Part shown: one piece after another, positions 10,594-40,800 of the stretch
How positions within the stretch are numbered: the stretch's first letter is position 1
Layout: every line of letters begins with the position of its first letter
Assembly: GCA_964534795.1 (NCBI GenBank)
Contig: CAZHQK010000180.1
Location: 4,395-68,394, forward strand
Reading direction: 5' to 3'
DNA from: an uncultured Acidobacteriota bacterium
GTDB taxonomy: Bacteria > Acidobacteriota > UBA6911
DNA: 64,000 nucleotides
The notes under the pieces: generated by a model
What the model was told of the DNA's origin: nothing
The model's input: only the letters and a program-made list of their open reading frames with translations
Databases searched by the model: none
Translations under genes and position numbers: made by a program

Positions 10594-11754
10594 TCACGCG
10601 AGGCTCTCGCGCACCGAAAGCGTGATCTTGTAAAAGATCGTGATCATAAGGAAGCCGACCGCCCAGATGGCCAGCGAGATGGCGATTTCCGGCAGGGTGG
10701 GCGTGTACTCCGTCACCGCCCCGAGCGGCGAAGGCACGAAGCCCCCCACGATCAGGCCGAGGCCCTTGTCGATCCAGAGGGAAAGGAATACGGTCACGCA
10801 GGCCGCCGCCAGAAAGGCATCATGGCGGCGCAGCCGCGGCACGAGCAGAATCGCCAGCGACACCAGCGCCAACAGCACCGAGGCCCACATCCAGGGCACG
10901 AGCGAGGCGCGCCCGTGCAGTCCGACGAACAGGTACCGGAAGTGCTCCATGTGCTCCGGGATCCTGCTGTAAAAGACGGTGAAGACCTCCATCAGAATGA
11001 AGAACACGTTGACGATCATCGCGTAGGTCACGATCAGCGACAGCTTCCGTATCGGCTCGCTGCCGGGATCGAAGCGCGTCAGCCGGCGGATGATCATGCA
11101 CAGCAGGATCAGGAGCGCCGGCCCGGCGGAGAACGCCGAGGCCAGGAAGCGCGGTGCCAGGATCGCGGTCAGCCAGAACGAGCGGCCGGGAAGGCCGTTG
11201 TACAGGAAGGCCGTGACCGTGTGAATGCTGATCGCCCAGGGTATGGAGATGATGATGATCGGCTTGATCCATCCGGGAGGCGCGACTGCCTTGCGCTCGG
11301 CGCTCAGCGTCACGAGCGCGATCACCGCATTCAGCAGAAGGTATCCCGTCAGGGATACGAAATCCCAGAACATCATGGAACCGGGCGTGGGGTGGAGCAT
11401 GACATTCAGCACGCGCGTGGGCTGCCCCATGTCGACGAAGATGTAGAGCATGCACATGGTCACGGCCGCGATCGCGAGGAATTCCCCGAGGATCGTGATC
11501 TTGGAGAATACCTTCCAGTCGTGCAGATAGTATGGCAGAACCACCATGACGGCCGAGGCGGCCACGCCCACCAGGAAGGTGAATTGCGCGATGTAGAGCC
11601 CCCAGGTCACGTCACGGCTCAGCCCGGTTATGCCCAGCCCTTGGTCGAACTGGCGCAGATAGGCGATCACCCCCAAGCCGATCACGGCGAACAGGCAGAA
11701 AATCCATGCCCAGTAGCGCCGGCTTCCGACCACGGCCTTTTCGAACATGAACAT
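10594..11754 (-). CDS. dsrP: DsrP, NrfD/PsrC-family integral membrane subunit of the DsrMKJOP complex
   Basis: 386 aa with about 10 TM helices of NrfD-like hydrophobic architecture. It is the last gene of a dsrMKJOP-ordered operon. Confidence 0.85.
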   Translation of the reverse strand: MFMFEKAVVGSRRYWAWIFCLFAVIGLGVIAYLRQFDQGLGITGLSRDVTWGLYIAQFTFLVGVAASAVMVVLPYYLHDWKVFSKITILGEFLAIAAVTMCMLYIFVDMGQPTRVLNVMLHPTPGSMMFWDFVSLTGYLLLNAVIALVTLSAERKAVAPPGWIKPIIIISIPWAISIHTVTAFLYNGLPGRSFWLTAILAPRFLASAFSAGPALLILLCMIIRRLTRFDPGSEPIRKLSLIVTYAMIVNVFFILMEVFTVFYSRIPEHMEHFRYLFVGLHGRASLVPWMWASVLLALVSLAILLVPRLRRHDAFLAAACVTVFLSLWIDKGLGLIVGGFVPSPLGAVTEYTPTLPEIAISLAIWAVGFLMITIFYKITLSVRESLA

Positions 11755-11763
11755 GGGAGCACC

Positions 11764-12486
11764 TCACACGATGTAATAGATTTCGGGGGCGGTGCCGAGT
11801 TCCGCCTTGCGCCGGATGGCGAAGTTGGTGCGCAGCAGCTCGCGCACCGCCGAGCCGGGGTCTTCCAGGTCCCCGAACACCAGGGCCTTTTCCTCGCAGG
11901 CTTCCACGCAGGCGGGCGCCTGTCCGCGCGCGAGGCGCTCCTCGCAGAACGTGCATTTTTCCACCACGCCCTTCGTCCGGGTCGGATAATCCGGGTCGAT
12001 GCGCGCGATGTGCGGGCGCGGGTCAAGCCAGTTGAAGCTGCGCGAGCCGTACGGGCAGGCCGCCATGCAGTAGCGGCAGCCGATGCACCGGTGCCAGTCC
12101 ATCATGACGATCCCGTCCTCCCTCTTCCAGGTGGCCCGGGTCGGGCAGACGCGCACGCAGGGCGGGTTGTCGCAGTGATTGCAGAAGACCAGGAAGGGCT
12201 GGTCGCGAAAGACTTCGTTCACATAGGGCCCGCGCTCGGAAACGAATGCTTCCTGGAACGGCTCCTTCCAGATCCACTTGATTTCGTGCGCGCGGTTCGG
12301 GAAATCGGGTACGTTGTGCACCCGATGACAGGCCTGGATGCAGCGGTCGCACCCCTTTTCCTTCAGGCACTTCCGCGCATCGATGACCATGGCCCAGCGG
12401 CGCGCCGCCGCTTGCGCCGCGACCCGGCGGCCGGCGAGCGCCGCCATGGAAAAGCAACCCAGTCTGAGGAATTCCTTCCTATTCAT
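11764..12486 (-). CDS. dsrO: DsrO, periplasmic 4Fe-4S ferredoxin-like subunit with a Tat signal
   Basis: In-frame ATG at 12484-12486 (MNRKEFLRLGCFSMAALAG...) with a Tat-like motif. Multiple CxxCxxCxxxCP ferredoxin motifs place it in the NrfC/PsrB family. It overlaps dsrJ by 8 nt. Confidence 0.85.
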   Translation of the reverse strand: MNRKEFLRLGCFSMAALAGRRVAAQAAARRWAMVIDARKCLKEKGCDRCIQACHRVHNVPDFPNRAHEIKWIWKEPFQEAFVSERGPYVNEVFRDQPFLVFCNHCDNPPCVRVCPTRATWKREDGIVMMDWHRCIGCRYCMAACPYGSRSFNWLDPRPHIARIDPDYPTRTKGVVEKCTFCEERLARGQAPACVEACEEKALVFGDLEDPGSAVRELLRTNFAIRRKAELGTAPEIYYIV

Positions 12487-12919
12487 GAACCACCTCGCTG
12501 GAGTTCGCCCCTGCGGCGCGGGCCGCCCGGGTCTGCGCAACGGTTGCCGGGTCGACATGGCACTCCCAGCAGTAGGGAGTCCGGACGCCCGAGTAGTCAT
12601 GGCAGCGGTCGCAGAATTCAGCCTTGTTGGTATGGCACTGCTTCAGGCAGGTACCGGTGAGGCTGATCGTGTACTCCTTGCCGTCGAAGGCGGTGTAGCG
12701 GCGGTTGTTCTCGCGCACGGCCGCGTCGCGCCACTGCACGAGCAGGCTCATGTGCGAGGTCTTCATGTAATCCGTGGGTGCGACGCACGTGCCGCCGGGC
12801 GGCAGCTTGATCTCCGGCGCCGCGGCGCGCGCACCGGAGGCTGCGTTGTACCAGACGGGGAAGGTGACCAGTCCGAGGAAGAAAACCAAGCCGGCGAATA
12901 TCAGGGCTCGATCACGCAT
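12479..12919 (-). CDS. dsrJ: DsrJ, membrane-anchored triheme cytochrome c
   Basis: 146 aa with an N-terminal TM anchor and three CxxCH motifs (CLKQCH, CDRCH, CWECH). The conserved Cys in ...GGTCVAPTDYM is characteristic of DsrJ. Confidence 0.85.
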   Translation of the reverse strand: MRDRALIFAGLVFFLGLVTFPVWYNAASGARAAAPEIKLPPGGTCVAPTDYMKTSHMSLLVQWRDAAVRENNRRYTAFDGKEYTISLTGTCLKQCHTNKAEFCDRCHDYSGVRTPYCWECHVDPATVAQTRAARAAGANSSEVVHE

Positions 12920-14531
12920 GGGCCGCCGCCTCCTTGTTCTTGAGGCGCTCGCCGCGCAGATCCGTGGTGCGCTCGCGCTCGCCTTTCATGACCAGGGCAT
13001 TGCCGACAAACTCGTGAACACCGCCCACCTCGACCCCCGGCACCCAGTATTCCATGAGCGTCGGCAGGGTCGCCTTGTCGATGGCACAGACGCAGGCCAG
13101 CATGTTGACGCCGTGGCGCTCCCGCACGTAGCGGACCGCATTGGCCCGCGGGAACCCGCCGCGCATGCGCATTTCCGCATTCTCATCGGTTCCCAGACCG
13201 GCGCCGCTGCCGCAGCAAAATGTCTGCTCGCGGATCGTGTTTTCGGGCATCTCGTGGAAATTGCGGCACACGCTGCGCAGGATGTAGCGCGGCTCCTCGA
13301 GCAAACCCATGGCCCGCGCCGGATTGCACGAATCGTGGAAGGTCACGTTCCAGTGATCGTTGCGGCTGGGATCGAGATTGAGCTTGCCGTGGCGGATGAG
13401 GTCGGCGGTGAACTCGCAGATGTGCACCATGCGCGTGGAGCGGGCATGGTCGAAGCGCGTACCCGTGACGGGAGAAACCGGCACTTCCAGGAAGTCGGCC
13501 GGCCCGTTCATCGTGTCCATGTACTGGTGCATCACGCGCCACATGTGCCCGCATTCGCCGCCCAGGATCCACTTGACCTTGAGGCGCCGCGCTTCCGCAT
13601 ACACCTTGGCGTTCAGCCGCTTGATCATCTCGTGCGAGGTGAACAGCCCGAAGTTGCCGCCCTCGGAGGCGTAGGCGCTGAAGGTGTAGTCCAGCCCGAT
13701 CTCATGGAGAACCATCAGATACCCGAGCAGGGTGTAATAATGGGGCGACGCGAAGTAGTCCGCCGAGGGCACGATGAAGAGAACCTCGGCCCCCTTCTTC
13801 ATGATCGGAGCCTCGACCCGCACCCCGGTGATCTCTTCCAGCTCGTCGACGGCGAACTCGATGCTGTCCTTGAAACCGTGCGGCTGGACACCGAGGTGAT
13901 TGCCGGTACGGTGGCAGTTGGCCACCGGCTCGAGTACCCAGTTGATATTGCAGCCGATCAGGTTCAGCAGCTCCCGCCCGATCATGGTCACTTCGGCAGT
14001 GTCGATGCCGTACGGGCAGAAGACCGAGCAACGCCGGCACTCGGTGCACTGGTAGAAGTAGTAGAACCATTCCTTGATCACATCCTCGGTGAGCTCGCGG
14101 CCCCCGGCCAGCGGTCCGAAGAGGCGCCCGGCGGGCGTGAAGTAGCGGCGGTAGACCGAGCGGATCAGCTCGGCGCGCAGCACGGGCATGTTCTTGGGAT
14201 CGCCCGACCCTAGGTAATAGTGGCATTTGTCGGCGCAGGCGCCGCAGCGCACGCAGATGTCCATGAAGAGGCGGAACGAGCGGTATTTCTCCAGCCTCTC
14301 CTTCATTCCCTCGAGGATGATGCGTTTCCAGTCGGCCGGCAGCTTCCAGTCCTTGTCGAAGGGCTGCCACTCCCTGGGATTCGGCAGGCCCAGGTACTCA
14401 AGGTTCTTCGGCAGCGCACTGTAGCAGAAGGTGCCCTTGCGGAATTCGACGCTCGGGTCCATCCAGCTCTTCTTGGGGGGCCGGTAATCGATCCGGACGA
14501 GTTGTTCGGGTCTGGGCGTCGTTTCGGTCAT
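12912..14531 (-). CDS. dsrK: DsrK, HdrD-like catalytic Fe-S subunit with CCG domains
   Basis: 539 aa with two ferredoxin-type Cys clusters (CVRCGACADKC, CTECRRCSVFCP) and CCG motifs (FHDSCNPAR..., FCCGSGAG). It sits between dsrM and dsrJ. Confidence 0.9.
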   Translation of the reverse strand: MTETTPRPEQLVRIDYRPPKKSWMDPSVEFRKGTFCYSALPKNLEYLGLPNPREWQPFDKDWKLPADWKRIILEGMKERLEKYRSFRLFMDICVRCGACADKCHYYLGSGDPKNMPVLRAELIRSVYRRYFTPAGRLFGPLAGGRELTEDVIKEWFYYFYQCTECRRCSVFCPYGIDTAEVTMIGRELLNLIGCNINWVLEPVANCHRTGNHLGVQPHGFKDSIEFAVDELEEITGVRVEAPIMKKGAEVLFIVPSADYFASPHYYTLLGYLMVLHEIGLDYTFSAYASEGGNFGLFTSHEMIKRLNAKVYAEARRLKVKWILGGECGHMWRVMHQYMDTMNGPADFLEVPVSPVTGTRFDHARSTRMVHICEFTADLIRHGKLNLDPSRNDHWNVTFHDSCNPARAMGLLEEPRYILRSVCRNFHEMPENTIREQTFCCGSGAGLGTDENAEMRMRGGFPRANAVRYVRERHGVNMLACVCAIDKATLPTLMEYWVPGVEVGGVHEFVGNALVMKGERERTTDLRGERLKNKEAAAHA

Positions 14532-14533
14532 CG

Positions 14534-15526
14534 CTACTCCCTCTCGAGCGGCAACCCGGCGGCCTTGATCTTGTCATGGAACTCGTGTTCCCACTCTTCG
14601 TAAGTGTGGACGTTGACCGGGTAATTCCAGGGATTGACGTGCCGCACCATGCGGTTGTTGTTGGCCAGATTCCTGGTGGGGCTGAGGAAGACCCCCGCCA
14701 TGTGCATCAGCTTGCTGAAAGGAAAATAGGCGATCAGGGTGCAGAGAAACAGGAGATGGGCATAGAACAGCCACCCCACGGCGGGGGGCGTCGCCGGCGC
14801 AAAGGTCACCAGCCCCATGGCGAACTGTTTGACGGCCAGCAGGTCGATCTTGGCGAAGTAGCGCATGAGGATGCCGGTCGCCGCCAGCCCCAGGAGCAGC
14901 AGGAGCGCGAAGTAATCCGTAAAGAGCGAGATGTAGCGCACCTGGGGGCTGCCGAGCCTGCGGTAGAGCAGGTAGGCCAGCGCCGCGCCCAAAAACACGT
15001 CGGTCAGCAGCAGCTCCGGCGTGCCCACCTGGAAGAAGCCGTCCAGCGTCGCCAGGGCGAGCACCCAGTTCGGGACGGGCTCCATGAAAAAGCGCAGGTG
15101 CCGGAGGAGAACGACGAGGAAGGACCAGTGGAACGCAAGGGCGCCCAGCCACAACCATTTCTCCTCGCCGTAGACCAGCCTGGGCCCGGGACGCAGCTCG
15201 GCCCGCGTATTGCGGAAGAGCGAGCGGAAAAGCAGAATCTCCAGAGCCATGCGCGCCGCCGTGCCCAGCTTCGTGTAGGGGCTTTCCAGCCAGCTCGCCC
15301 GGATCCAAGGCAGCGACTTCTGCTGGCCGCAGGTGGTGGTGATGCGAAAGGGAACGGGCGACGAGGCCCAGCGCGCAACCCGCAGGATCATGCCCAGAAT
15401 GAAGGTGGTGATCGCGGCATAGGGAACGATCACGCCGATCAGGCTGCGCATCCCGCTTGCCTGTGCGCCCAGCGCTCCGATCGCGGCGATCACCACGACT
15501 GCGCCCAGCGCGGCCATGACATTCAT
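14534..15526 (-). CDS. dsrM: DsrM, NarI/HdrE-like dihaem cytochrome b membrane subunit
   Basis: 330 aa with 5-6 TM helices and conserved His pairs, and a cyt b-like C-terminal tail. It is the first gene of the MKJOP set. Confidence 0.85.
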   Translation of the reverse strand: MNVMAALGAVVVIAAIGALGAQASGMRSLIGVIVPYAAITTFILGMILRVARWASSPVPFRITTTCGQQKSLPWIRASWLESPYTKLGTAARMALEILLFRSLFRNTRAELRPGPRLVYGEEKWLWLGALAFHWSFLVVLLRHLRFFMEPVPNWVLALATLDGFFQVGTPELLLTDVFLGAALAYLLYRRLGSPQVRYISLFTDYFALLLLLGLAATGILMRYFAKIDLLAVKQFAMGLVTFAPATPPAVGWLFYAHLLFLCTLIAYFPFSKLMHMAGVFLSPTRNLANNNRMVRHVNPWNYPVNVHTYEEWEHEFHDKIKAAGLPLERE

Positions 15527-16179
15527 CAGCGCCTCCCTTCAGGACGGTCCCGCCGGCGCTCGTCGCCGCTTTCCGCGGCCTGCGCGGAGGATTCCGCCAG
15601 CGCGGGACTCATCCGTTCGAGAAGAAACATCCTCCTTTGCATCTCATGGACCCTGATCTCGAGAAGACGCTCGCGGCATTCGAGGTAGAGGTCGAAGGCC
15701 GCCAGCGCCATTTCGTCGATGCGGCCGTCGAGAGGCTCCAGGTCGATCGCGGGCATGCCCGCGGCATCGTCCTCGCGCAGCGCCGCGCGCACCACCTCCT
15801 TGAGATCGAAGACGAAGGCAACGGCCTGGCTGGCCGTGAAGTCCTGGACCGCCCGGATGCGGACGAGATCGTCGAGCGCGGCCTTCAATGCGGCGGGGTC
15901 CATTTCGCCGACGAGCTGGTCGAAAAGCGCGGGCAGGCCGCGCTTGAAGGCCAGCCCGACAGGATTGCGGAAGGGGTCTTTCTCTTCGAGGAAGAATCGG
16001 GCCGTGCTCCCGGAATAGCCGCGCAGTATCCGCGCCAGCCACGCGTCGATGACGGCACCTCTCCTGCGCGCCAGAGCTTCCGACAGGAGCCTGGAAAGCC
16101 CGGGGGCGCCCGAGCGTCGGCCCGGCGCGACCCGGCCCCCCCTTTGAGCATCCCCGGACCCGCAGCCCGTGACTTTCAC
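15526..16179 (-). CDS. dsrT: DsrT-like protein (RsbRD_N-type domain), putative regulator preceding dsrMKJOP
   Basis: The globular part (..AVIDAWLARILRGYSGSTARFFLEEKDPFRNPVGLAFKRGLPALFDQL..) resembles the RsbRD N-terminal family that defines DsrT in dsrTMKJOP operons. A GTG at 16177-16179 has GGGAGA 6 nt upstream. The track ORF extends to ATG 16278 with a Gly/Arg-rich N-terminus, so the start is uncertain. Confidence 0.45.
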   Translation of the reverse strand: MKVTGCGSGDAQRGGRVAPGRRSGAPGLSRLLSEALARRRGAVIDAWLARILRGYSGSTARFFLEEKDPFRNPVGLAFKRGLPALFDQLVGEMDPAALKAALDDLVRIRAVQDFTASQAVAFVFDLKEVVRAALREDDAAGMPAIDLEPLDGRIDEMALAAFDLYLECRERLLEIRVHEMQRRMFLLERMSPALAESSAQAAESGDERRRDRPEGRR

Positions 16180-16414: not shown

Positions 16415-16732
16415 CTAGACGCAACCGGTAGGTTTGGGCAGTCCGGCAAGCTTGCACGCGCCCTTGGCGGGCCCGGAAGGAAAGAGTTCGTAGATCTTGT
16501 TGAGCTTGAAGCCGGTCTCCTTGCACAGTTTGCGGATCATGGGAGCGATGCCGAACTCGAGGTAGTAATTGCGCAGGTAGTGGATCACCTTCCAGTGCTC
16601 CTCGGTCAGCTCCGTGACTCCCTCGGTGGTGGCGAAATCCTTCGCGACCTCCTCGTTCCACAGCGACGGATCCTGCAGGAAACCGTCTTCATCCACTTCG
16701 TAGCTTCGTCCATGAACTGTAAATGTAGGCAT
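16415..16732 (-). CDS. dsrC: DsrC (TusE/DsrC/DsvC family) with both conserved C-terminal cysteines
   Basis: 105 aa ending ...CKLAGLPKPTGCV, the diagnostic DsrC C-terminal arm with two Cys spaced by 10 residues. Confidence 0.95.
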   Translation of the reverse strand: MPTFTVHGRSYEVDEDGFLQDPSLWNEEVAKDFATTEGVTELTEEHWKVIHYLRNYYLEFGIAPMIRKLCKETGFKLNKIYELFPSGPAKGACKLAGLPKPTGCV

Positions 16733-16864: not shown

Positions 16865-17113
16865 CTATTCGGGTGCCGCTCCTTCCTTATGCGGCAGGGT
16901 GATGTAGCTGCCGCCGAAGTAGCTGTAAACGCAGCGACCGGAATCGATGAGGCTGCGGATGGCAAGCTTGCAGTCGTCCTTGGTGCAATTCTCCTCTCCG
17001 AACTTGGCGATCATGGCCTTGGTCAGATCGCCTGCTTTGAGGTTCTTCTTGCCGAGGCATTCGACCACCATCTTGTACATCTCCTCGGCAAGATCTTCGA
17101 TGCTCACGCCCAT
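16865..17113 (-). CDS. dsrD: DsrD (small winged-helix protein of reductive dsr operons)
   Basis: 82 aa, immediately downstream of dsrB. The C-terminal ..GRCVYSYFGGSYITLP resembles the DsrD YWSSGSTTMYGL wing. Confidence 0.8.
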   Translation of the reverse strand: MGVSIEDLAEEMYKMVVECLGKKNLKAGDLTKAMIAKFGEENCTKDDCKLAIRSLIDSGRCVYSYFGGSYITLPHKEGAAPE

Positions 17114-17122: not shown

Positions 17123-18205
17123 CTAGTACTTGATATGCATGGAGCGGGCATAGGTCAATCCCGCGTGCTTGAAATCGTCGATATGATAGCGGGTGAACGG
17201 AATGCCCGTCAGCTGGAAAAAGCGCGGCCAGCCGATGCGCTCGATCCACTCGCCCATGCGCTCGTGCTTGCGGGCGTGCGCGGCGTAAACCTTGACGAGG
17301 TTGACGACCGCCTCGACCACCTCCGGCCAATGGGGCGGATTGTTGGGTATGAAGGGGATCGCCAGTTTCGAGAACTTGGGGGCGCTGCGCGCGTTGCTGA
17401 CCTTGCCCCCGACCCAGATCGACAGCCCGTCGTTGTCGGGATCGTTCAAAGGCATGGCGGGGCATACGGTGTAGCAGTTGGCGCAGAACATGCACTGCGC
17501 CTCCACCACTTCGACGGTCTGCTTGCCGTCGACGGTCTTGGGGCGGATGGCCCCCGTCGGGCATGAGGCGATCAAAGTCGGGATCTCGCAGACCTTGGGC
17601 AGCAGTTCGTGCTGCACCTTGGGCAGCCTGCGGTGCACCCCGAGGATCGCGATGTCGGAGCAGTGGACGGCACCGCACATGTTCAGGCAGCAGGCGAGGG
17701 CGATGCGCAGCTTGGCCGGCAGCTTTTCCTCGGTGAACTGGTCGCACAGGGCATCCATGACGCTCTTGACGATTCCCGAGGCGTCGGTGGCCGAGGAGTG
17801 GCAGTGGATCCAGCCCTGGGTATGCACGATATTGCTGATGGCATTGTTCGTGCCCCCCACCGGGAAGCCCGCGGCCTGGAGTTCCTTCTTCAAGGGCTCG
17901 ATATTCTCTTTCTTGTCCAGCAGGAACTCGACGTTGTTCCGGCTGGTGAAGCGGAGATATCCGCCGCAGTATTTGTCGGCCAGGTCGGCAAAGAACCGCA
18001 TGGTATGGACGCTGAGCAGACGGGGCGATCCCGCGCGGACGCTGTAGATGCGGTCTCCCGACTCGGCGACATGGCACAGGACCCCGGGGGCCACCGACTC
18101 GTGATACTTCCACTGGCCGTAATTCTTCTTGATGATGGGATGAAGGAACTTCTCGTAATGCGGAGGCCCGATATCGGTGATTCTCTTAGCAGGTTGCGTC
18201 GACAT
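17123..18205 (-). CDS. dsrB: dissimilatory sulfite reductase beta subunit
   Basis: 360 aa with the sirohaem/Fe-S Cys motifs ([23 protein letters not shown]) and a ferredoxin insert (CPTGAIRP...[12 protein letters not shown]). Confidence 0.95.
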
Positions 18206-18261: not shown

Positions 18262-19449
18262 CTAGTCTTCATCCTGCTGGAAGAAGATGTAAGGATTGTC
18301 TCTCGGGGCGCTGATCATTTCCGGCTGCGGGTCGAGACCGATGGCGTCGAGGAAATTCGCCATCCCCACCCGCTGGATCAGCTCTCCGATCCTCTCGCGA
18401 TTCATGCCGTGCTCGTCCCAGAACTCCCACACGCGGGAGATGAGCTCCTTCAGGGTCTCCAGCAGTTCCTCCTCCGGCACGAAGGGAATGATGACGGAGG
18501 AAAGCAATGCGCCCTGAACGATCGGCGCCTTGGCCCCGATCAAGACCACGGCGCCTCTTTCCGTGCCCGGGCGCAGGGCCTTGGGCATGAGGTTGATGCA
18601 GTGCATGCAGTGCACGCATTCCCGATTGTCGATCGTGAGCTTTTTGCCGTCCCATTCCATGCACTTGGAGGGGCACAGGTCGCACACCTCCTTCTGGATG
18701 CTCATGGCGGCGGCATACTCGCGCACGGCGTCGTCGTCCTGCCGGATGTCGTCCTTCCATGTGCCGATGACGGAGAGGTCGGCACGCGCGATCGATGCCA
18801 CGCAATCGTTCGGGCACCCGGAGAACTTGAACTTGAACTTGTACGGGAAGGGCGGGCGGTGGAGTTCGTCCTGGTAGGTCTGGGTGATGTCGTAGCAGAC
18901 CTTCAGGGTGTCGTAGCACGCCCACTCGCAACGCGCGGGGCCGACGCAGGCGGACGGCGTGCGCATGCAGGATCCCGAACCGCCCAGATCGAAACCGGCT
19001 TCGGTCAGTTCCTTGAAGCAGGGCTCGAGCTCTTCGGTCTTGGTGCCGAGAAAGATGATATCGCCCGTGGATCCGTGCATGTTGGTCAGGCCGGAGCCGT
19101 GACGCTCCCAGATGCCGGCCAAGGTGCGCAGCGCCTCGCTGGTATAGAACCATCCCGCCGGATGGTTGATGCGCATGGTATGGAAATGGGCCACGTTCGG
19201 GAATTTCTCCGGCACGTCGCTGTAGCGCCCGATGACGCCGCCGCCGTAACCGAGAACGCCCACGATACCGCCGTGTTTCCAGTGCCCGATCTTCTCCTCG
19301 TATGAAAGCTCCAGCTGCCCGAGGAGATCCTGGGTGACGGGATTGGTCGCGGCCGCCTTCTTCATCTCGCGGACGAAGCTCGGCCACGGTCCCGTCTCGA
19401 GCTTGTCGAGAAGCTCGGTCTTGGACTTCTTTTCATCAGCCATTATCAT
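18262..19449 (-). CDS. dsrA: dissimilatory sulfite reductase alpha subunit
   Basis: 395 aa with [31 protein letters not shown] and [14 protein letters not shown], plus the ferredoxin domain CPSKCM...CVHCMHCIN. It is of reductive type, given the linked dsrD. Confidence 0.95.
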
Positions 19450-33607: not shown

Positions 33608-34384
33608 TCAGCGGGAAGCGTCGTCCGGCCGGCGATCGAGCGCGCGCCGGGCCGCATCCAGCTTTTCGCGCAGGCGCACCACTTCGCCGATCACCAGCGT
33701 GGCCGGCGGCTTCAAGCCCGCGCGTTCGACCTCGTCCGCAATAGTGGCCAGCGTCGCCGTCACCACCCGCTCGTCGCGCCAGAAAGCCGTCTGGATCATG
33801 GCGGCCGGCGTCTGCGGGCTGCGCCCGCTTTCCATCAGGCGCGCGGCGATGCGCCGGACGTTCTGCACCCCCATGACGAAGACTAGGGTCTCGATCGCGC
33901 TCAGGGCGCGCCAGTCCAGGCGGCCCGGTTCGCCGCGGGCCTCGTGCCCGGTGACGATGGCCACGCACGACGCCGCATCACGGTGGGTCACCGCGATGCC
34001 CGCGCGCAGCGGGGCCGCCAGCGCCGACGAGATGCCCGGGACGACCTCGAAGGGGATGCCGTGCTCCGCGAGAAACTCCGCCTCCTCGCCGCCCCTTCCG
34101 AAAAGGAAAGGATCGCCTCCCTTGAGGCGAACCACCATCTTGCCCTCCTGCGCCTTGCGCACGAGCAGCCGGTGGATCTCCTCCTGGCGCACATCCTGCC
34201 CGCCGACGGCCTTGCCCATGTAAATGCGTTCGGCGCCGGGTCCGACCAGCGCCAGCGTGTCCTCCTGGATCAGCCGGTCGTAAACCACCACGTCGCAAGC
34301 CCGCAAAAGCTCCGCCGCCTTCAAGGTGAGGAGCTCCGGAGGGCCGGGGCCCGCCCCCACCAGGTATACCTTGCCGCTTGTCAT
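33608..34384 (-). CDS. cobA: uroporphyrinogen-III C-methyltransferase (SUMT)
   Basis: VYLVGAGPGPPELLTLKA...GGDPFLFGRGGEE...VVPGISS are SUMT signatures. ATG at 34382-34384 has a GAAGAGG RBS. The track's upstream GTG at 34408 is an alternative. Confidence 0.85.
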   Translation of the reverse strand: MTSGKVYLVGAGPGPPELLTLKAAELLRACDVVVYDRLIQEDTLALVGPGAERIYMGKAVGGQDVRQEEIHRLLVRKAQEGKMVVRLKGGDPFLFGRGGEEAEFLAEHGIPFEVVPGISSALAAPLRAGIAVTHRDAASCVAIVTGHEARGEPGRLDWRALSAIETLVFVMGVQNVRRIAARLMESGRSPQTPAAMIQTAFWRDERVVTATLATIADEVERAGLKPPATLVIGEVVRLREKLDAARRALDRRPDDASR

Positions 34385-34551
34385 CGCCGGCCTCTTCGCC
34401 GAGGGCACTCTTCTTTATCACGCCGCCTCGGGCAGTGCAACACGCGATTGGCCCCCACGGCGACTCTGACACCGGCATTGCGATTCAGATACCGGCAGCC
34501 GAGGGTGAGCCGAAGGCGAAGGCAAGCAGATCCCGCGCGCCGCGCGCGATC

Positions 34552-34598
34552 GCCGGCTTGAAGCAATAAGCCCCCGGTCCGCCACGGCGCGGCGGACC
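34552..34598 (+). repeat. 47-nt hairpin-containing element, copy A, in the leader of the cbiA/dsrN-like gene
   Basis: GCCGGCTTGAAGCAATAAGCCCCCGGTCCGCCACGGCGCGGCGGACC. It is 39/47 identical (ungapped) to copy B. It contains the stems GCTT/AAGC and GTCCGCC/GGCGGAC. Confidence 0.55.
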
Positions 34599-34835
34599 TA
34601 CCAGCCCCGGCAGGGGCCCTGAGCCGGTAGCCGGGGGTGAGCCGGAGGCGAACCCCCGGAAAGGAGCGTTAGATCAGTCGAGCCCCGGAGGGCCGACAGA
34701 CCAGGTTTCTGATTCATCCTTCTGCCGGCCCTTCGGGGCTTGTCGCATGCCGTCACCTTTTCTCCAGGTTCGCTTCCGCTCACCTGGAGCTACCAGCTTC
34801 CGTCCCTCCGGGACGGATATGCGCCGCGCGGAAAC

Positions 34836-34882
34836 GCCAGCTTGAATCAATAAGTTCACCGTCCGCCGCGGTGCGGCGGACC
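34836..34882 (+). repeat. 47-nt hairpin-containing element, copy B
   Basis: GCCAGCTTGAATCAATAAGTTCACCGTCCGCCGCGGTGCGGCGGACC. Both stems are preserved. Confidence 0.55.
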
Positions 34883-34970
34883 GGGGCAGGAGGGCATCGC
34901 GCGCAAGGGGGCCTGTGCAAGCGCCGGCGATTCATGTATCCTGAAACGCAAGTGGTCGGCTGGGTCGGTA

Positions 34971-36374
34971 ATGAGCGGTGATCGGGATGAAGCGCGGGCG
35001 CTGCCGCGCGTCGTGATCGCAGGCCTGTCCGGGGACTCCGGCAAGACGCTTGCCGCCCTCGGCCTGCTGCTTGCGGCGCGCGCGCGCGGTCTCGAGGTCG
35101 CCGCCTTCAAGAAAGGTCCGGATTACATCGACGCCGCTTGGCTGAGCTGGGCGTCGGGCCGGCAGGCCAGGAATCTCGATTCCTTCCTCGCGGGCTTCCC
35201 GGGATGCGCGGCTTCCTTCGGCCGGCACGCACTGCCTGGGGGGTTGAACGTCATCGAGGGCAACCGCGGCCTCTACGACGGCGTGGATGCCTGCGGCACC
35301 CACAGTACGGCCGAGCTCGCCAAGGCGCTGCAGGCCCCCGTGATCCTGGTCATCAACGCCGCCAAGGTCACGCGCACCATCGCCGCTCCGATCCTGGGAT
35401 GCCTCGATCTCGATCCCGACGTGCACATCGCCGGCGTCATCCTCAACCGCGTCGCCGGGCAGCGCCATGAGACCATGCTGCGCGCGGCGGTGACGGCGTG
35501 CGGCCTTCCGGTGCTCGGTGTCATTCCCCGGATCGCCGCCCCGGCGCTGTTGCCCGAACGCCACCTCGGCCTGGTGACTCCGGCGGAACATCCGGGGATC
35601 GAGGACCTCGAGCGCAACCTGCGCACCCTGGCAGAGAGGCTCGATCTGGACGGGATTGGATCGATCGCACGCGACGCACCGCCCCTCGCCGTCCCGGCAC
35701 CCGCCGCCATGCAGGGAGCGCCGGCCCGCACCGTCAGGATCGGCTTCCTGCGCGACAGCGCCTTCAATTTCTACTATCCGGAAAACCTCGAAGCATTGCA
35801 GCAGCACGGCGCCGAGCTGGTTCCGCTGTCGAGCCTGGAATCGCCCGAGCTGCCGGCGGATCTCGCCGCACTGTACATCGGCGGCGGCTTCCCGGAAACG
35901 CACGGCGCGGCGATCGCGCGCAACAGTTCCTTTCTCGGCAGCCTGCACCATGCAGCAGCCGCGGGGCTGCCCATCTATGCCGAGTGCGGCGGCCTGATGC
36001 TCCTCTCCGAAGCCGTCGTCTGGCGCGGAGTTTCATACCCCATGGCCGGCTGGCTGCCCTTCCCGGTCCACATGTGCGAGACGCCGCAGGGCCATGGCTA
36101 CGCCGAGCTTCTGGTCGACCGGCCCAATCCGTTCTACCCGCCGGGCCTCTCCCTGAAAGGCCACGAGTTCCATTACTCGAAAATCGCCCTGCAGTCCGAA
36201 GAGCCGCGGACGGCCTGCGCCGTGCGCCGCGGCACGGGCTGCTTCCACGGCCGCGAGGGCATCGTGCGCGCCAACACCTGGGCGGGCTATACGCACATCC
36301 ATGCCTCCGCGACGCCGGAATGGGCGCCGGCGTTCGTGCAATGCGCGCGGCGCTTCGCCGACAGCGCAAGATAA
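34971..36374 (+). CDS. cobyrinate a,c-diamide synthase family amidotransferase (CbiA/CobB homolog; plausibly DsrN-type sirohaem amidase given context)
   Basis: 467 aa with an N-terminal CbiA ATPase domain (VIAGLSGDSGKTLAALGLLLAA) and a C-terminal GATase-1 domain (YAECGGLMLL...). It sits next to SUMT inside the sulfate-reduction island. Confidence 0.8.
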   Translation: MSGDRDEARALPRVVIAGLSGDSGKTLAALGLLLAARARGLEVAAFKKGPDYIDAAWLSWASGRQARNLDSFLAGFPGCAASFGRHALPGGLNVIEGNRGLYDGVDACGTHSTAELAKALQAPVILVINAAKVTRTIAAPILGCLDLDPDVHIAGVILNRVAGQRHETMLRAAVTACGLPVLGVIPRIAAPALLPERHLGLVTPAEHPGIEDLERNLRTLAERLDLDGIGSIARDAPPLAVPAPAAMQGAPARTVRIGFLRDSAFNFYYPENLEALQQHGAELVPLSSLESPELPADLAALYIGGGFPETHGAAIARNSSFLGSLHHAAAAGLPIYAECGGLMLLSEAVVWRGVSYPMAGWLPFPVHMCETPQGHGYAELLVDRPNPFYPPGLSLKGHEFHYSKIALQSEEPRTACAVRRGTGCFHGREGIVRANTWAGYTHIHASATPEWAPAFVQCARRFADSAR

Positions 36375-36637: not shown

Positions 36638-36706
36638 TGCAGAATTTTAATTAAAGGCGATGACAACGGCAGCTCCAGCGTTTATTATTAACCGGCGAAA
36701 AGATCC
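36638..36706 (+). promoter_or_regulatory. conserved 69-nt upstream element, copy 2 (sat leader, about 118 nt before the ATG)
   Basis: The core GCGTTTATTATTAACCGGCGAAAAGATCC lies at 36678..36706. It is followed by the hairpin gatccag-ggggat-ctggatc. Confidence 0.55.
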
Positions 36707-36823: not shown

Positions 36824-38092
36824 ATGAGCAAATTGGTACCCCCGCATGGCAGCCCGACGCTGAAACCCTTGCTTCTCGGACAGGAGGAGGCCAAGGAAGA
36901 GCTCAAGAAGGCGCAGACGCTCAAGAAAGTGCCCATGTCGACGCGCGAGACGAGCGACCTCATCATGATGGGGATCGGCGCGTTCACGCCGCTCGACGGT
37001 TTCATGGGGCGAGCCGACTGGCAGGGATGCTGCGACACCTATACCATGCCGAGCAAGAACAATCTTTTCTGGCCTATTCCCATAACCCTATCGGCGGCCC
37101 AGGATCTGGCGGATTCCATCAAGATCGGCGAGGAAGTCGCCCTTTGGGATCTCGAAACCGAGGCCGTCATGGGAACCATGAAGGTCGTCGAAAAGTACAC
37201 CATCGACAAGGAGCATGAGTGCCGGCAGATCTTCAGGACGACCGACCCGGCGCATCCCGGCGTCGAGAAGGTGATGCAGCAGGGGCCGGTAAACCTGGCC
37301 GGACCGGTCAAGGTCATCTCCGAGTCCTACTACCCGGAAATGTTCCGCGGCATCTACCAGCGCCCGGCCGAGGCGCGCAAGGTTTTCGAGGAGCGCGGGT
37401 GGAGCACCGTGGCCGCGCTGCAGCTGCGCAATCCCATGCACTCGTCCCATGCCTACCTGGCCTGGATCGCCATCGAAGTGTGCGACGGCGTTTATATCCA
37501 CCAGCTGGTGGGCAAGCTCAAGCCCGGCGACATCCCGGCCGACGTGCGCGTGAAGGCGATCGACGTGCTGGTCAACAAGTACTTCCGCAAGGACCGCGTC
37601 GTTCAGGGCGGCTATCCCATGGAGATGCGCTATGCCGGCCCGCGCGAGGCCCTGCTGCATGCGGTCTTCCGCCAGAACTACGGCTGCTCCCATCTCATCG
37701 TCGGCCGGGATCACGCGGGGGTCGGCGACTACTACGGCCCGTTCGACGCCCAGAAGATATTCAACGAGATCCCGCAGAACGCGCTGGTCTTGCGCCCGCT
37801 CTGCATGGACTGGACATTCTACTGCTACGAATGCAAGAGCATGGCCTCGATGAAGACCTGCCCGCACGAAAGCAAGGCGGTGATCGACGAAAACGGCGTC
37901 TACAAGGGCGGCGCCAGGCTCCTGCTTTCCGGAACCCTGCTGCGCAAGCTCATGAGCGAGGGGAAACCCGTGCCGCCCGAGTTTTCCAAGCCCGAGGTGA
38001 TCGCCGTGCTCAAGGAGTACTACGACAAGCTCGAGCAGAAGGTGGATATCAAGCTGCACGGATTCGCCACGGGTGAGAAAAAGAGTTCCTAG
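36824..38092 (+). CDS. sat: sulfate adenylyltransferase (ATP sulfurylase)
   Basis: 422 aa with [18 protein letters not shown] and a PUA-like N-terminus. A GGAGGA RBS is present. Confidence 0.95.
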
Positions 38093-38257: not shown

Positions 38258-39193
38258 ATGACCGCTGCTCTCTATCTGTTTCTCTACGCGATGATCCTGG
38301 TGTTCGCCGCCGGATGCGCCGTCAGAATCTACCGCTACGCGACCGCCCCGATGCACCTGCGCTGGGAGCTCTATCCCGTCCCCCACGAAGAGCCTCACCG
38401 GGTGCGACACGGCGGGTCCTACTTCGAAGCGCCGGATTGGTGGACGCGTCCCGTCCATTTCAACCTCGCAGGCGAACTCAAGTTCATGATCCCCGAGATG
38501 ATCTTTCTCAAGGGACTCTGGGAGTTCAACCGGCCGATGTGGCGGCGCTCCTTCCCCTTCCACTTCGGACTGTACCTGCTCATCGGTACCGCAGCCCTGG
38601 CGGCGGTGGCGGCGGTGCTCGACCTGATCGCCGCGGGGACTTCGAGCACGGGCCTGGGCTGGGCGATCGCCCGGCTCTATACGGTCACCGGACTCGCCGG
38701 AGCGATCCTGTGCGTCGTCGGAGCTCTGGGCCTGTTGCACCGGCGCCTGACCGACCCGAAACTGCGGCTCTATACAACCCCGGGAGACATATTCAATCTG
38801 GTCTTCTTCGTGGTCGCCGTCGCGCTGCTCTTCGCCGGCTTCGCCTTCGGCGGGCCGGACACTCCCGGGCCGGCTGCGATCGTGCGCGGGCTCGTCCGTT
38901 TCGACACCGGTCTCGAGATCCCGGCCACGCTCGCCGTCGGGCTGGCCCTCGCCGGGCTGCTGATCGCCTACATCCCGATGACGCACATGTCCCACTTTAT
39001 CGCGAAGTGGTTCACCTACCACGAAATCCGCTGGGACGACCAGCCGATCGCGCGCAGCCGCAGGCTGGCGCGCAAGCTCGCCGAGCAGCTCGCCTACCGG
39101 CCCACCTGGGCCGCCGCGCACGTAGGGGCCGACGGCAGCAAGACGTGGGCGGACGTCGCGACCACCAATCCGGCTCAAGGAGCGAAGCGATGA
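38258..39193 (+). CDS. DsrM/HdrE-like (NarI-type) membrane cytochrome b, paralog
   Basis: 311 aa with 5 TM helices and His residues positioned as in DsrM/HmeC. Its stop overlaps the next gene's start (ATGA). Confidence 0.75.
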   Translation: MTAALYLFLYAMILVFAAGCAVRIYRYATAPMHLRWELYPVPHEEPHRVRHGGSYFEAPDWWTRPVHFNLAGELKFMIPEMIFLKGLWEFNRPMWRRSFPFHFGLYLLIGTAALAAVAAVLDLIAAGTSSTGLGWAIARLYTVTGLAGAILCVVGALGLLHRRLTDPKLRLYTTPGDIFNLVFFVVAVALLFAGFAFGGPDTPGPAAIVRGLVRFDTGLEIPATLAVGLALAGLLIAYIPMTHMSHFIAKWFTYHEIRWDDQPIARSRRLARKLAEQLAYRPTWAAAHVGADGSKTWADVATTNPAQGAKR

Positions 39194-40800
39194 AGGACAA
39201 GAAGATCGATCTCAAAGACATGTCCCGGACGGAGCGCGAGCCGCTCGTCCATCTGGAGGACGGCGACCTGATGCCCTTGCCGGTTCCCTCAGCCGATGTG
39301 GTGACGGAACGCCGGTGGACGCCTCTTTCCGAGCAGATCCGGGAAAAGTACGAATGCATCCTCGACGACACCTGCGCGGTGAACGTCCCCCGGCCGCAGT
39401 CCAAGGAAGAGGAAGAGGAGCTGGTGCGCAAGTTTCTGTCCGGACTCGACAAGCTCTTCTCCAAGGAAAACAACTGGACCTTCCTGCTGCCGCTCGTGCT
39501 CACCATGGAGCATTGCGCCAAGTGCCAGACCTGCTCGGAAGCCTGCCATATCTACGAAGCCAGCGGCCGCAACGAGCTTTACCGGCCCACCTTCCGCTCC
39601 GAGATCATGCGCCGGCTTTACTACAAGTACGTCAAGCACGGGGGCCTGCTTTCGGCATGGCAGCACGGCGACATCGAGGTCAACTGGCCCCTGGTCGCCA
39701 GGCTGATCGAACTCTCCTACCGCTGCAATCTCTGCCGGCGCTGCGCGCAGACATGCCCCATCGGGGCCGACAACGGCCTCGTGGCCCATGAGCTCAGGAA
39801 GCTCTTCAGCCAGGAGATGGGGATCGCCGCCAAGGAGATTCACGATTCCGGCTCCATGCTTCAACTCAAGGTGGGCTCCTCCACCGGGATGAATGCCCTG
39901 GTGGTCAAGGACAATATCGAGTTCATCGACGAGGACATGTCGGAAAAGACCGGGATCAAGGTCGAGACCCCGTGGGATGTCGAAGGGGCCGACGTCCTGC
40001 TGATTCACAACGCCGGCGAGATCCTGGCGTGGCCGGAGAACCCCGGTGCCTTCGCCGTCATCCTGAACGCCGCGGGCATCAAATGGACCCTGTCGTCCGA
40101 GCTGGCGGGCTACGATTCGATCAACTACGGCGTGTGGTACGACGACGCCCAGTTCGCGCGCGTGGCGCTCAAGCACGCCGAGGCCGCCAGGAAGCTGAAG
40201 GTCAAGAAGATAGTCCTGGGCGAGTGCGGCCACGCGCACAAGTCGCTCTCGGTCATCGCCGACCGCGTCCTCGACGGCGAGTACAACATACCGCGCGAAA
40301 GCTCCATGACCCTGCTGCACGACATCGTGATGAACGGCCGCATCAAGCTGGATCCCTCGAGGAACGATTTCCCCGTCACGCTCCACGACCCCTGCAATCT
40401 CGTGCGTCTCATGGGCGTCGTCGAGCCGCAGCGCGAGATCCTGCGCAAGATCTGCCCGAAGTTCCGCGAAATGGAACCCCACGGCGTGGACAATTACTGC
40501 TGCGGCGGCGGCAGCGGCTTCGCCATCATGAGCCCCAACAATTTCTCCGACTGGCGCTTCCGCGTCGCGGGTCGGAAGAAAATGGAGCAGATCCTGAACG
40601 CGTTCGCGGACTGCCTCGACCCCTCGATCCCCAAGTACCTGTGCGCTCCCTGCAGCAACTGCAAGGGGCAGTTCCGCGACATGTTGGCCTACTATGACAT
40701 GTGGGAAAAGTATCGCATACTGTACGGCGGCCTGGTGGAGCTGATCGTCAACGCCATGGTCGACGTCAAGCCCGGATTCATCGAATGGGAGTGGCATTGA
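39190..40800 (+). CDS. DsrK/HdrD-like Fe-S protein with two CCG domains, paralog
   Basis: ATG at 39190 (MKDKKIDLKDMS...). It has CAKCQTCSEACH, CNLCRRCAQTCP, LHDPCNLVRLMG and YCCGGGSGF. The track ORF 38110..40800 is an upstream artefact extension. Confidence 0.85.
   Translation: MKDKKIDLKDMSRTEREPLVHLEDGDLMPLPVPSADVVTERRWTPLSEQIREKYECILDDTCAVNVPRPQSKEEEEELVRKFLSGLDKLFSKENNWTFLLPLVLTMEHCAKCQTCSEACHIYEASGRNELYRPTFRSEIMRRLYYKYVKHGGLLSAWQHGDIEVNWPLVARLIELSYRCNLCRRCAQTCPIGADNGLVAHELRKLFSQEMGIAAKEIHDSGSMLQLKVGSSTGMNALVVKDNIEFIDEDMSEKTGIKVETPWDVEGADVLLIHNAGEILAWPENPGAFAVILNAAGIKWTLSSELAGYDSINYGVWYDDAQFARVALKHAEAARKLKVKKIVLGECGHAHKSLSVIADRVLDGEYNIPRESSMTLLHDIVMNGRIKLDPSRNDFPVTLHDPCNLVRLMGVVEPQREILRKICPKFREMEPHGVDNYCCGGGSGFAIMSPNNFSDWRFRVAGRKKMEQILNAFADCLDPSIPKYLCAPCSNCKGQFRDMLAYYDMWEKYRILYGGLVELIVNAMVDVKPGFIEWEWH

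Follow-up and report, generated by a model that had tools for sequence, protein, structure and literature searches.

The stretch analysed here, referred to as the window, comprises 64,000 nucleotides of contig CAZHQK010000180.1 from an uncultured Acidobacteriota bacterium of the lineage UBA6911. Between positions 10594 and 40800 it carries a dissimilatory sulfate-reduction gene cluster, in which the genes of the Qmo complex are followed by three DsrJOP-like genes (J', O' and P') and transcribed divergently from marR-aprBA. The genes were called by frame bias of the GC content at third codon positions (GC3; the window has about 64% GC) and then checked against NCBIfam and Pfam. The start of the dsrT-like gene was that of the gene call in the independent contig L081 (ENA ERZ27245602), and the call of the 201-aa MarR-like gene was that of the independent contig and of a 96%-identical relative contig. 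The gene content and order of the original prediction were borne out with small corrections. It had described the entire pathway as consolidated here; the enzymatic and electron-transfer core was indeed present, but the cluster contains no sulfate transporter or pyrophosphatase genes. The features are as follows, with scores written as bits/cut-off of NCBIfam equivalog models.

10594-11754, minus strand: dsrP (DsrP 474/350)
11764-12486, minus strand: dsrO (DsrO 299/200)
12479-12919, minus strand: dsrJ (DsrJ 149/100)
12912-14531, minus strand: dsrK (DsrK 730/400)
14534-15526, minus strand: dsrM (DsrM 508/300)
15526-16179, minus strand: dsrT-like gene (RsbRD_N; Pfam PF14361, 73 bits), directly upstream of dsrM
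16415-16732, minus strand: dsrC (TIGR03342 125.7/53.5)
16865-17113, minus strand: gene in the DsrD position, 82 aa, 9 nt downstream of dsrB
17123-18205, minus strand: dsrB (TIGR02066 522/342)
18262-19443, minus strand: dsrA (TIGR02064 591/393)
19557-20387, minus strand: CxxCxxCC/YkgJ-like gene, ykgJ (Pfam PF03692)
20380-20664, minus strand: Ogr/Delta-type zinc-ribbon gene, znr (Pfam PF04606)
20728-22656, minus strand: aprA (TIGR02061 903/642)
22670-23116, minus strand: aprB (TIGR02060 205/136)
23134-23739, minus strand: MarR-like regulator gene, 201 aa (Pfam MarR_2), opening the apr-dsr transcription unit
23740-24608, no strand: marR/qmoA divergent spacer, 869 bp
24609-25868, plus strand: qmoA (HdrA-like)
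25873-28146, plus strand: qmoB (HdrA-like)
28198-29469, plus strand: qmoC (NF038018 390/300)
29487-29855, plus strand: J', DsrJ-like (DsrJ model 64/100, below cut-off)
29908-30633, plus strand: O', DsrO-like (DsrO model 296/200, above cut-off)
30656-31852, plus strand: P', DsrP/NrfD-like (DsrP model 73/350, below cut-off; Pfam NrfD 178 bits)
31922-33574, minus strand: CoA-disulfide-reductase/rhodanese gene (CoADR-rhodanese), 550 aa (TIGR03385 446 bits, below the cut-off of 579; Pfam Pyr_redox_2 and Rhodanese)
33608-34408, minus strand: SUMT gene (uroporphyrinogen-III C-methyltransferase, sirohaem branch; TIGR01469 300/185)
34971-36374, plus strand: CobB/CbiA gene, dsrN (NF002204 402/254)
36660-36688, plus strand: predicted promoter of the sat-dsrM2-dsrK2 operon, in a block shared with qmoA
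36824-38092, plus strand: sat (NF003166 478/387)
38258-39193, plus strand: dsrM2, DsrM-like (NarI-like fold family)
39190-40800, plus strand: dsrK2, DsrK-like (DsrK model 328 bits, below the cut-off of 400)

The catalytic subunits all exceeded the NCBIfam equivalog cut-offs, and the genes form at least four transcription units. The first, on the minus strand, reads marR-aprBA-znr-ykgJ-dsrAB-(dsrD)-dsrC-dsrT-dsrMKJOP. Most of its genes overlap or lie less than 65 nt apart, with 107-136 nt before dsrA and around dsrC; the dsrMKJOP genes overlap or are 2-9 nt apart, and all five subunits were above cut-off. The second unit, qmoABC-J'O'P', diverges from the one headed by marR. The third holds the CoADR-rhodanese and SUMT genes, and the fourth starts with dsrN, followed by sat-dsrM2K2. 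The SUMT/dsrN spacer is divergent and 562 bp long, and the dsrN/sat spacer measures 449 bp. The CoADR-rhodanese gene, which lies between P' and SUMT and is convergent with the qmo operon, was missing from the earlier gene list.

In sulfate reduction, Sat activates sulfate to adenosine 5'-phosphosulfate (APS), and AprBA reduces APS with electrons from Qmo. Sulfite is then reduced by DsrAB with DsrC, and the DsrC trisulfide is re-reduced with menaquinol by the membrane complex DsrMKJOP. SUMT and DsrN supply the sirohaem (amide) cofactor. In the window, DsrC has both conserved C-terminal cysteines (...GACKLAGLPKPTGCV), and DsrK2 has a CCG motif and two CxxCxxCxxxC motifs; DsrM2K2 may also re-reduce the DsrC trisulfide. 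The DsrAB was 74-85% identical to DsrAB of acidobacterial metagenome-assembled genomes (MAGs), and neither dsrL nor dsrEFH was found within the 64-kb window, from which we infer that it is probably of the reductive bacterial type, in which acidobacterial DsrAB has been placed (PMC10564751). The other genes also had relatives in comparable places. The dsrT-like gene had counterparts of 43-46% identity in the equivalent position of acidobacterial loci, dsrN had 56-61% homologs within acidobacterial dsr clusters, and SUMT had 70-72% homologs upstream of marR-aprBA in Bryobacterales MAGs. Compared with the pairs next to dsrAB or aprBA in Acidobacteriaceae loci, M2 was 47-54% and K2 75-85% identical.

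The qmoABC-J'O'P' operon and its relatives

For comparison with relatives, an AprA scan with one genome per GTDB species gave 80 loci (cited by L numbers), on which all 27 cluster proteins were placed by tblastn. The prevailing acidobacterial order is co-directional, (marR)-aprB-aprA-znr-ykgJ-qmoA-qmoB-(qmoC)-dsrA-dsrB-(dsrD or dsrL-dsrC)-..., and the segment (marR)-aprBA-znr-ykgJ-qmoABC-dsrAB was present in the majority of the 44 closest loci as well as in contigs of Bryobacteraceae. The Bryobacteraceae operon of about 20 kb reads marR-aprBA-znr-ykgJ-qmoABC-dsrAB-143aa-dsrL-dsrC-dsrT-dsrMKJOP-PF03601-TauE. Furthermore, a SUMT(-fusion) gene runs straight into marR-aprBA in the Bryobacterales loci L001, L007 and L009, which also have sat and dsrN on the upstream side of marR, and sat, dsrN and dsrD lie just upstream of marR-aprBA on the opposite strand in L007 and L013. 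We infer that the backbone sat/dsrN - SUMT - marR-aprBA-znr-ykgJ-...-dsrAB-...-dsrTMKJOP was probably ancestral to the sulfate-reducing Acidobacteriota. Its order was common to dozens of Acidobacteriota MAGs and also occurred beyond the phylum, indicating that it is ancestral and not an accessory island. For the backbone, this is the outcome that the original prediction had itself named as a refutation.

The placement of qmo was different. In the relatives, the qmo genes lie within the operon, between ykgJ and dsrA; in the window only 107 bp separate these two genes, with no tblastn signal of a qmo remnant. The qmo operon of the window does adjoin marR-aprBA, yet it is divergent across 869 bp and not downstream of aprA. 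None of the 80 AprA loci (0/80) had qmo divergent from marR-aprBA, so the arrangement is as unusual as had been predicted. Apart from this operon, no second qmo was found in the 64-kb window. Compared with the L007-type backbone, the window differs in three ways: the six-gene operon, in inverted orientation, and the CoADR-rhodanese gene occupy precisely the place between SUMT and marR, an in-operon qmoABC is lacking, and dsrD follows dsrB in place of the 143-aa gene and dsrL. Relatives with AprA and DsrAB 81-88% and 74-85% identical to those of the window, respectively, had in-operon QmoA and QmoB of only 50-57% identity. By these comparisons, only the six-gene qmo module and the CoADR gene appear to be an insertion or replacement specific to this lineage. 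The inserted genes were compositionally ameliorated, indicating that the event was not recent.

The closest relatives of this Qmo were found elsewhere. A database search gave at least 120 clusters of 753-760-aa QmoB at 75-81% identity to that of the window; the named members came from Planctomycetota, Acidobacteriota, Zixibacteria and 'Ca. Electryonea', and JGI names them QmoB. The QmoB and QmoC trees were neighbor-joining (NJ) trees on tblastn-derived segments, unbootstrapped and lacking type I/II Qmo references. In the QmoB tree (93 sequences), the window protein nested in a 757-aa clade beside the Acidobacteriota MAG L085, far from the acidobacterial in-operon clade. QmoA and QmoB gave partial hits with the HdrA2 model, and QmoB contained VhuD/FlpD and 4Fe-4S domains. 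QmoC had two CxxCxxCxxxC motifs and about six hydrophobic segments, combining HdrC-like Fe-S and HdrE-like cytochrome b parts.

The three contexts of the closest QmoB homologs all (3/3) showed the order qmoA-qmoB-qmoC-J'(121-126 aa)-O'(244-246 aa)-P'(397-404 aa), a stand-alone operon whose surroundings were unrelated, and the intergenic gaps were short both there and in the window. Moreover, a metagenome scan with a P' protein alignment yielded 80 further loci, for which the gene counts include only those with enough upstream DNA (informative loci). Upstream of P', O' was present in 65/65 informative metagenome loci, J' in 58/58, qmoC in 41/41, qmoB in 31/32 and qmoA in 23/24. Stand-alone operons with a QmoB at least 65% identical to that of the window (class i) accounted for 33 loci. 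In class ii (for example L032, L122, L148, L160 and L168), the trio was in the canonical place, aprBA-znr-ykgJ-qmoABC-J'O'P'-(dsrA or sat/dsrC/dsrTMK...). A third placement was seen in the UBA6911-like loci L036 (38-9687) and L044 (141-4444), with qmoC upstream of marR-aprBA. In L036, qmoC was followed by two extra open reading frames (ORFs) of about 340 aa, a 134-aa ORF, O' and P'; in L044, qmoAB remained in the operon without qmoC.

In the QmoC tree (94 tips), the 48 JOP-linked QmoCs fell within one clade of 50 tips defined by their most recent common ancestor, and the QmoBs of JOP-linked modules fell in three separate clades of the 93-sequence tree. In these trees, qmoC-J'-O'-P' thus behaves like a co-evolving four-gene unit that was combined with different qmoAB lineages. 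With the NCBIfam qmoC model (cut-off 300), JOP-linked QmoC scored 378-401 bits and the short in-operon QmoC 231-367 bits. No description of a qmoABC-DsrJOP-like operon was found in the literature, of which the coverage was incomplete, so that a prior mention is possible. As far as found, qmoABC-J'O'P' is thus a widespread and new Qmo variant.

The proteins of the trio resemble their Dsr counterparts to different degrees. J' is a membrane-anchored protein of 122 aa with three CxxCH motifs, corresponding to a triheme cytochrome c. It lacks an insert of about ten residues but keeps the DsrJ-specific motif C-V/I-x4-Y/F-M-x3-H, which the 10 J' and 6 DsrJ sequences compared had in common. The region of this motif in DsrJ has been proposed to give His/Cys and His/Met ligation. 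O' is an Fe-S protein of 241 aa with a twin-arginine signal, RREFL, and predicted export by the twin-arginine translocation (Tat) pathway, and P' is an NrfD-type membrane protein of 398 aa with about ten transmembrane helices. The identities of J', O' and P' to the window's own DsrJ, DsrO and DsrP were 30%, 41% and 24%, respectively. Judged by the model scores, with J' and P' below cut-off, J'O'P' are paralogs, not orthologs, of DsrJOP. Nor are they encoded with dsrMK; in all 41 informative loci they followed qmoC.

Origin of the cluster and proposed role of the Qmo module

The exact AprB sequence of the window was present on five contigs. Two independent assemblies, ENA ERZ27245602 (L081) and JGI 3300022548 (L082), agreed with the window at 99.98% identity along 20.4 kb and 14.2 kb, respectively, with unchanged order. 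In addition, a separate population of 96% nucleotide identity (ENA ERZ4756918/9, a 163-kb contig) had the identical order from dsrT through sat-M2. An assembly chimera, which had been named as a risk at the outset, was ruled out by these agreeing assemblies and by the order retained in the related population.

The GC3 was 0.842 ± 0.039 for 27 cluster genes and 0.825 ± 0.026 for 23 flank genes. The codon-usage distance to the pooled flank usage was 0.82 ± 0.21 for the cluster and 0.80 ± 0.18 for the flank genes. A small shift of the cluster toward C-ending codons was as expected for well-expressed genes. No tRNA gene was detected in the window by a tRNA scan, no integrase or transposase was present among the window and flank annotations (Pfam scans of the flanks), and a repeat search found no long direct repeats flanking the cluster. 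The left flank encodes a peptide ABC transporter, NifU, DUF302, an arginase family protein, an amidase and a PALP enzyme. The right flank encodes Fe-SOD, cytochrome bd, ribBA/ribE, rluB, scpAB, an M50 protease and hemC and, further on, a TonB-like protein, dapF, a PGI-like SIS protein, a SpoIIE-type phosphatase and an M16 peptidase. The 44 closest AprA loci (81-88% identity) were Acidobacteriota MAGs with three labelling exceptions, belonging to Bryobacterales, Terriglobia, Acidobacteriaceae, Thermoanaerobaculia and Vicinamibacterales, and the DsrB of the window fell in a 90% cluster that includes a Bryobacteraceae protein. The flanking ribBA had named relatives only in Acidobacteria (68-69%), and outside its own species cluster (96%) none was above 77%. 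The relatives of ribBA and of Apr/Dsr are both acidobacterial, so the cluster and its flanks agree in taxonomy.

The original prediction had suggested that the whole cluster of about 30 kb is a transferable or recently assembled pathway island and proposed to check this by composition, synteny and gene-tree congruence. Such a view is suggested by the presence of all needed genes in one place, and the idea of clustered genes and their concomitant transfer was put forward by Mussmann 2005, as cited in PMC6338057. The aprBA-znr-ykgJ architecture also occurs in MAGs labelled Zixibacteria, Ignavibacteria/Kapabacteria, Gemmatimonadota, KSB1 and others, in keeping with an old transfer of such clusters between phyla, and a MITE-like insertion of about 320 bp (see below) lies in the SUMT/dsrN spacer. 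However, the cluster was indistinguishable from its flanks in GC3 and codon usage, had no tRNA, integrase, transposase or direct-repeat borders, and was flanked by housekeeping genes. Its backbone order was common to the other sulfate reducers of the phylum, hence ancestral, and the whole order was identical in the population of 96% average nucleotide identity; only the qmo placement set the window apart in the synteny comparison. The presence among close relatives was not patchy, the backbone being kept across Acidobacteriota and only the qmo module differing. The island is therefore very improbable, and the "recent" part of the claim is largely refuted.

A better explanation, which we consider fairly probable as a whole, is an ancestral acidobacterial supercluster in which the in-operon qmoABC was replaced by a divergent six-gene qmoABC-J'O'P' operon, likely feeding AprBA. 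It includes the statement that the cluster is chromosomal, native and vertically inherited in the uncultured acidobacterium. The usual in-operon qmoABC between ykgJ and dsrA would have been lost in this lineage, and a different, normally stand-alone qmoABC-J'O'P' operon would have been placed with the CoADR-rhodanese gene between SUMT and marR and wired to the promoter type of sat. QmoC (di-haem b and Fe-S, HdrE/HdrC-like) would take the role of DsrM, and J' (periplasmic triheme cytochrome c), O' (Tat-exported Fe-S protein) and P' (NrfD-type, quinone-interacting) might dock on it. In the resulting six-subunit transmembrane Qmo, a second quinone/periplasmic electron-input or proton-coupling site could deliver electrons to QmoAB and from there to AprBA, and this complex would be the sole Qmo of the lineage. 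A true six-subunit transmembrane complex serving AprBA, as a counterpart of DsrMKJOP with the JOP-like trio as an extra electron-input or energy-coupling partner, is a tentative proposal from the sequences, possible but on balance doubtful. With purified QmoABC and AprAB, no electron transfer from menaquinol analogues to APS was observed, and a "third partner" or confurcation was proposed (PMC3333476). According to the same study, no partner genes are co-localised with the classical sat-aprBA-qmoABC. DsrMKJOP has been described as DsrMK plus a DsrJOP module, the role of which was called "an enigma", possibly quinone cycling or proton pumping (PMC10861901).

Several points weigh against this explanation. 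The trio did not conform as a set to the DsrJOP equivalog models, since J' and P' were below and O' above cut-off. The physical association of J'O'P' with QmoC is suggested by synteny and co-phylogeny only. The order of events, loss plus insertion, is a parsimony argument and hence provisional, and the Qmo phylogeny comes from the unbootstrapped NJ trees described above, with their short segments and without type I/II references. The view is limited to 64 kb, so another qmoABC elsewhere in the genome is possible. The genes by themselves are compatible with reduction, disproportionation or oxidation as the direction of the pathway. Furthermore, aprA was present in the fetched flank of only 1/33 class-i loci (L139), many of these flanks being short. 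Most class-i operons thus lie away from aprBA, indicating that the partner of the module need not be AprBA in general. In L139 (3896-21177, JABAOH010003573.1), a stand-alone-type qmoABC-J'O'P' is followed about 3 kb downstream by aprBA-znr-ykgJ and a second, in-operon-type qmoAB, so two kinds of Qmo can coexist.

The last two points lead to the alternative that the six-gene operon does not serve APS reduction but acts, for example, as a general HdrA-type quinone/periplasm redox hub, with an incidental adjacency to marR-aprBA and the Apr partner encoded elsewhere. The usual stand-alone position of class-i modules in unrelated neighbourhoods fits this, as does the report of Qmo-like proteins in organisms without Apr/Dsr (PMC10504309). 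However, no further qmo was found within the 64-kb window, the window QmoC passes the qmoC equivalog model, and the operon shares its promoter with sat. Moreover, the class-ii loci carry J'O'P'-extended in-operon versions directly after aprBA-znr-ykgJ, and dsr genes lie near the stand-alone modules of L083, L127 and L131. We regard this alternative as unlikely. Still less probable is that J'O'P' are not Qmo subunits at all and combine with DsrM2K2 into a split complex, a second DsrMKJOP that acts on DsrC. No JOP set belongs to M2K2 itself, and exactly one spare set is encoded in the window; O' exceeds the DsrO cut-off, and in this lineage one promoter block is common to the qmo-J'O'P' and sat-M2K2 operons. 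But J'O'P' directly followed qmoC in every informative locus, and M2K2-like genes were almost never nearby. The M2K2 of Acidobacteriaceae lies next to dsrAB or aprBA without J'O'P', QmoC and J'O'P' are phylogenetically linked, and the two sets are 6.4 kb apart in the window, in separate operons.

As a whole, the cluster is ordinary, one more acidobacterial sulfate-reduction locus. Acidobacterial dsr/apr/qmo/sat clusters have already been published, including dsrM2K2 and SUMT-like genes, with all genes of one MAG on one scaffold (PMC6018796). The clusters of Hausmann et al. 2018 (PMC6018796) and Dyksma & Pester 2023 (PMC10564751) resemble the window in phylum, in the conserved hypothetical genes after aprA, in the one-scaffold clustering reported for SbA2 and in the oxygen-related genes nearby. 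In contrast to them, the window has no dsrL and no qmoABC between ykgJ and dsrA; its Qmo is of a different clade, carries J'O'P' and diverges from marR-aprBA, and a CoADR-rhodanese gene lies inside the cluster. The sat-aprBA-qmoABC of Desulfovibrio and Chlorobaculum (Ramos et al. 2012, PMC3333476) likewise has AprBA and HdrA-like QmoA/B, and the window QmoC passes the model. By analogy with that system, Qmo is the presumed electron donor of AprBA in the window. However, qmoABC there continues the aprBA operon and has no partner genes beside it, whereas in the window it is divergent and followed by a DsrJOP-like trio.

The predicted QmoC-J'O'P' architecture is similar to that of DsrMKJOP (Hme) and the Hmc/Tmc-type complexes (Barbosa et al. 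2024, PMC10861901), which have in common a membrane di-haem cytochrome b, a cytoplasmic Fe-S/flavin module, a triheme cytochrome c, a Tat-exported NrfC-like protein and an NrfD-like protein. Unlike in DsrMKJOP, the cytoplasmic module in the window is QmoAB (HdrA-like flavoproteins) and not DsrK (HdrD-like, with a CCG cluster). The environmental fosmids of Mussmann et al. 2005 (J Bacteriol 187:7126, as cited in PMC6338057) come, like the window, from an uncultured organism and carry dsr, apr, qmo and sat together; compared with the "metabolic island" as cited there, the composition, flanks and phylum-wide synteny of the window argue against a recent transfer. 'Ca. Thermonerobacter thiotrophicus' (PMC6338057), with the order sat-aprBA-hyp-hyp-qmoC-dsrAB-dsrD-dsrN-..., shares the two hypothetical genes after aprA, the co-linear apr-dsr and dsrM2K2 with the window. 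Unlike the window, it has qmoC alone in the operon and qmoAB elsewhere, and no J'O'P' follows qmoC in L045 and L077.

If the proposal holds, the lineage would be a natural case in which the six-subunit form is the only Qmo serving AprBA, and the JOP module would be a portable add-on to HdrE-type cytochrome b modules, whatever the cytoplasmic chemistry. The qmo module bears on how a menaquinol-linked Qmo makes APS reduction thermodynamically feasible and energy-conserving, and also on what DsrJOP does; the operon makes both questions testable. For heterologous expression, the Qmo here probably needs six genes and not three, and the unit also includes, as conserved members, the znr and YkgJ-like genes that follow aprA. 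The cluster should not be presented as a mobile island; the qmo module is its interesting part.

Regulatory regions and accessory genes

The divergent spacer between marR and qmoA had been described as an 870-bp AT-rich control region. It is 869 bp long, but its overall GC content is about 60%, against about 64% for the window. AT-rich pockets were found at 23800-23950 (36-40% GC) and 24050-24150 (44% GC), and positions 24350-24550 had 72-79% GC. Back-to-back sigma-70-like promoters were predicted at about 24092-24132, with a GC-rich qmoA leader of about 475 nt; the predicted opposite-strand promoter-like site at 24,119-24,092 faces marR. Compared with the 96% relative, the qmoA promoter and proximal leader (24,090-24,440) were 97% conserved and the segment 23840-24090 was less so, the marR-proximal half being the most variable part of the spacer.

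The upstream regions of qmoA (24,104-24,150) and sat (36,660-36,706) have a block in common, GATGACAA-N16-GCGTTTATTATTAACCG(C/G)CGAAA(G/A)GATCC, with identical -35 and -10 hexamers (ATGACA-17-TATTAT) and a 29-nt core of 93% identity. The pattern GATGACAA-N16-GCGTTTATTATTAACCG gave two hits, against 0.01 expected by chance. Outside this species-level lineage the block was not seen, and the qmo modules of other lineages lack it upstream. It suggests a regulatory integration of qmo with sat, and the adjacent MarR-like regulator is a candidate to bind it. Homologs of this regulator with 43-54% identity occur upstream of aprB in many acidobacterial loci. Its C-terminal tail is rich in Cys (CLQCGISYRENCRFGELSRRECFYRRH) and may be a redox- or metal-sensing extension. 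A structured RNA or riboswitch in the qmoA or sat leader was rejected, as there was no Rfam match anywhere in the window and the folding z-scores were -0.89 and -0.85.

In the SUMT/dsrN spacer (34540-34897), the window carries about 320 bp that the 96%-identical relative (L086/L087) lacks. This insertion ends in inverted arms of 26 nt (34572-34597 and 34861-34886), is flanked by the direct repeats GCTTGAAGCAATAAG and GCTTGAATCAATAAG, has an inner copy of the flanking motif, CAGCCGRGGGTGAGCCGRAGGCGAA, and showed a very stable single-stranded DNA fold (z = -6.3). It was found once in the window and in none of the 171 fetched loci. The insertion looks like a miniature inverted-repeat transposable element (MITE).

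After dsrB, the relatives split into those with dsrD (82 aa) and those with the 143-aa gene and dsrL (e.g. L088, 11103-13205); the window is of the dsrD type, and the 143-aa gene was not found in its 64 kb. Homologs of the 82-aa protein (46-79% identity) likewise follow dsrB in Acidobacteriota, Kapabacteria and other loci. The protein and eight of its homologs gave no match with Pfam PF08679, and searches of PDB by phmmer or profile gave no DsrD match, with weak winged-helix family hits only. A single-sequence AlphaFold2 model had a low predicted local distance difference test score (pLDDT 63.5), with three helices and a disordered C-terminus, and Foldseek against PDB gave no link to DsrD. DsrD is a marker of reductive operation of the pathway, and this acidobacterial family was termed DsrD in PMC6018796. 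From its position and the literature, the 82-aa protein is probably a DsrD-type winged-helix activator.

The znr and ykgJ pair followed aprA in nearly all of the 80 AprA loci, across many phyla, and corresponds to the "two conserved hypothetical genes" after aprA in PMC6338057. By this conservation of gene order, the pair clearly belongs to the apr unit.

The CoADR-rhodanese protein, a flavoprotein of the CoA-disulfide-reductase family whose C-terminal domain is a rhodanese, is persulfide/polysulfide-reductase-like. Homologs of 37-38% identity lie directly after qmoC in the non-acidobacterial loci L052 (10174-11754) and L072 (18424-20007), and L064 has a partial match of 38% (21055-21885) starting from about 3 kb further downstream than its qmoC. 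The association of qmo with CoADR/rhodanese thus recurs across loci.

Directly after dsrK2, Fe-SOD (about 41022-41606) and cytochrome bd genes lie on the plus strand (40701-44238 of the window), and the SOD ORF may have an N-terminal extension of about 107 codons that overlaps the end of dsrK2. Oxygen respiration and tolerance have been reported for sulfate-reducing Acidobacteriota (PMC10564751), and the position of these genes beside dsrK2 fits this. At the other end of the cluster, directly downstream of dsrP, a gene for a PALP-dependent enzyme of the cysteine-synthase-like fold family lies at 9055-10212 on the minus strand; the Bryobacteraceae relatives have PF03601 and TauE-type exporters there.

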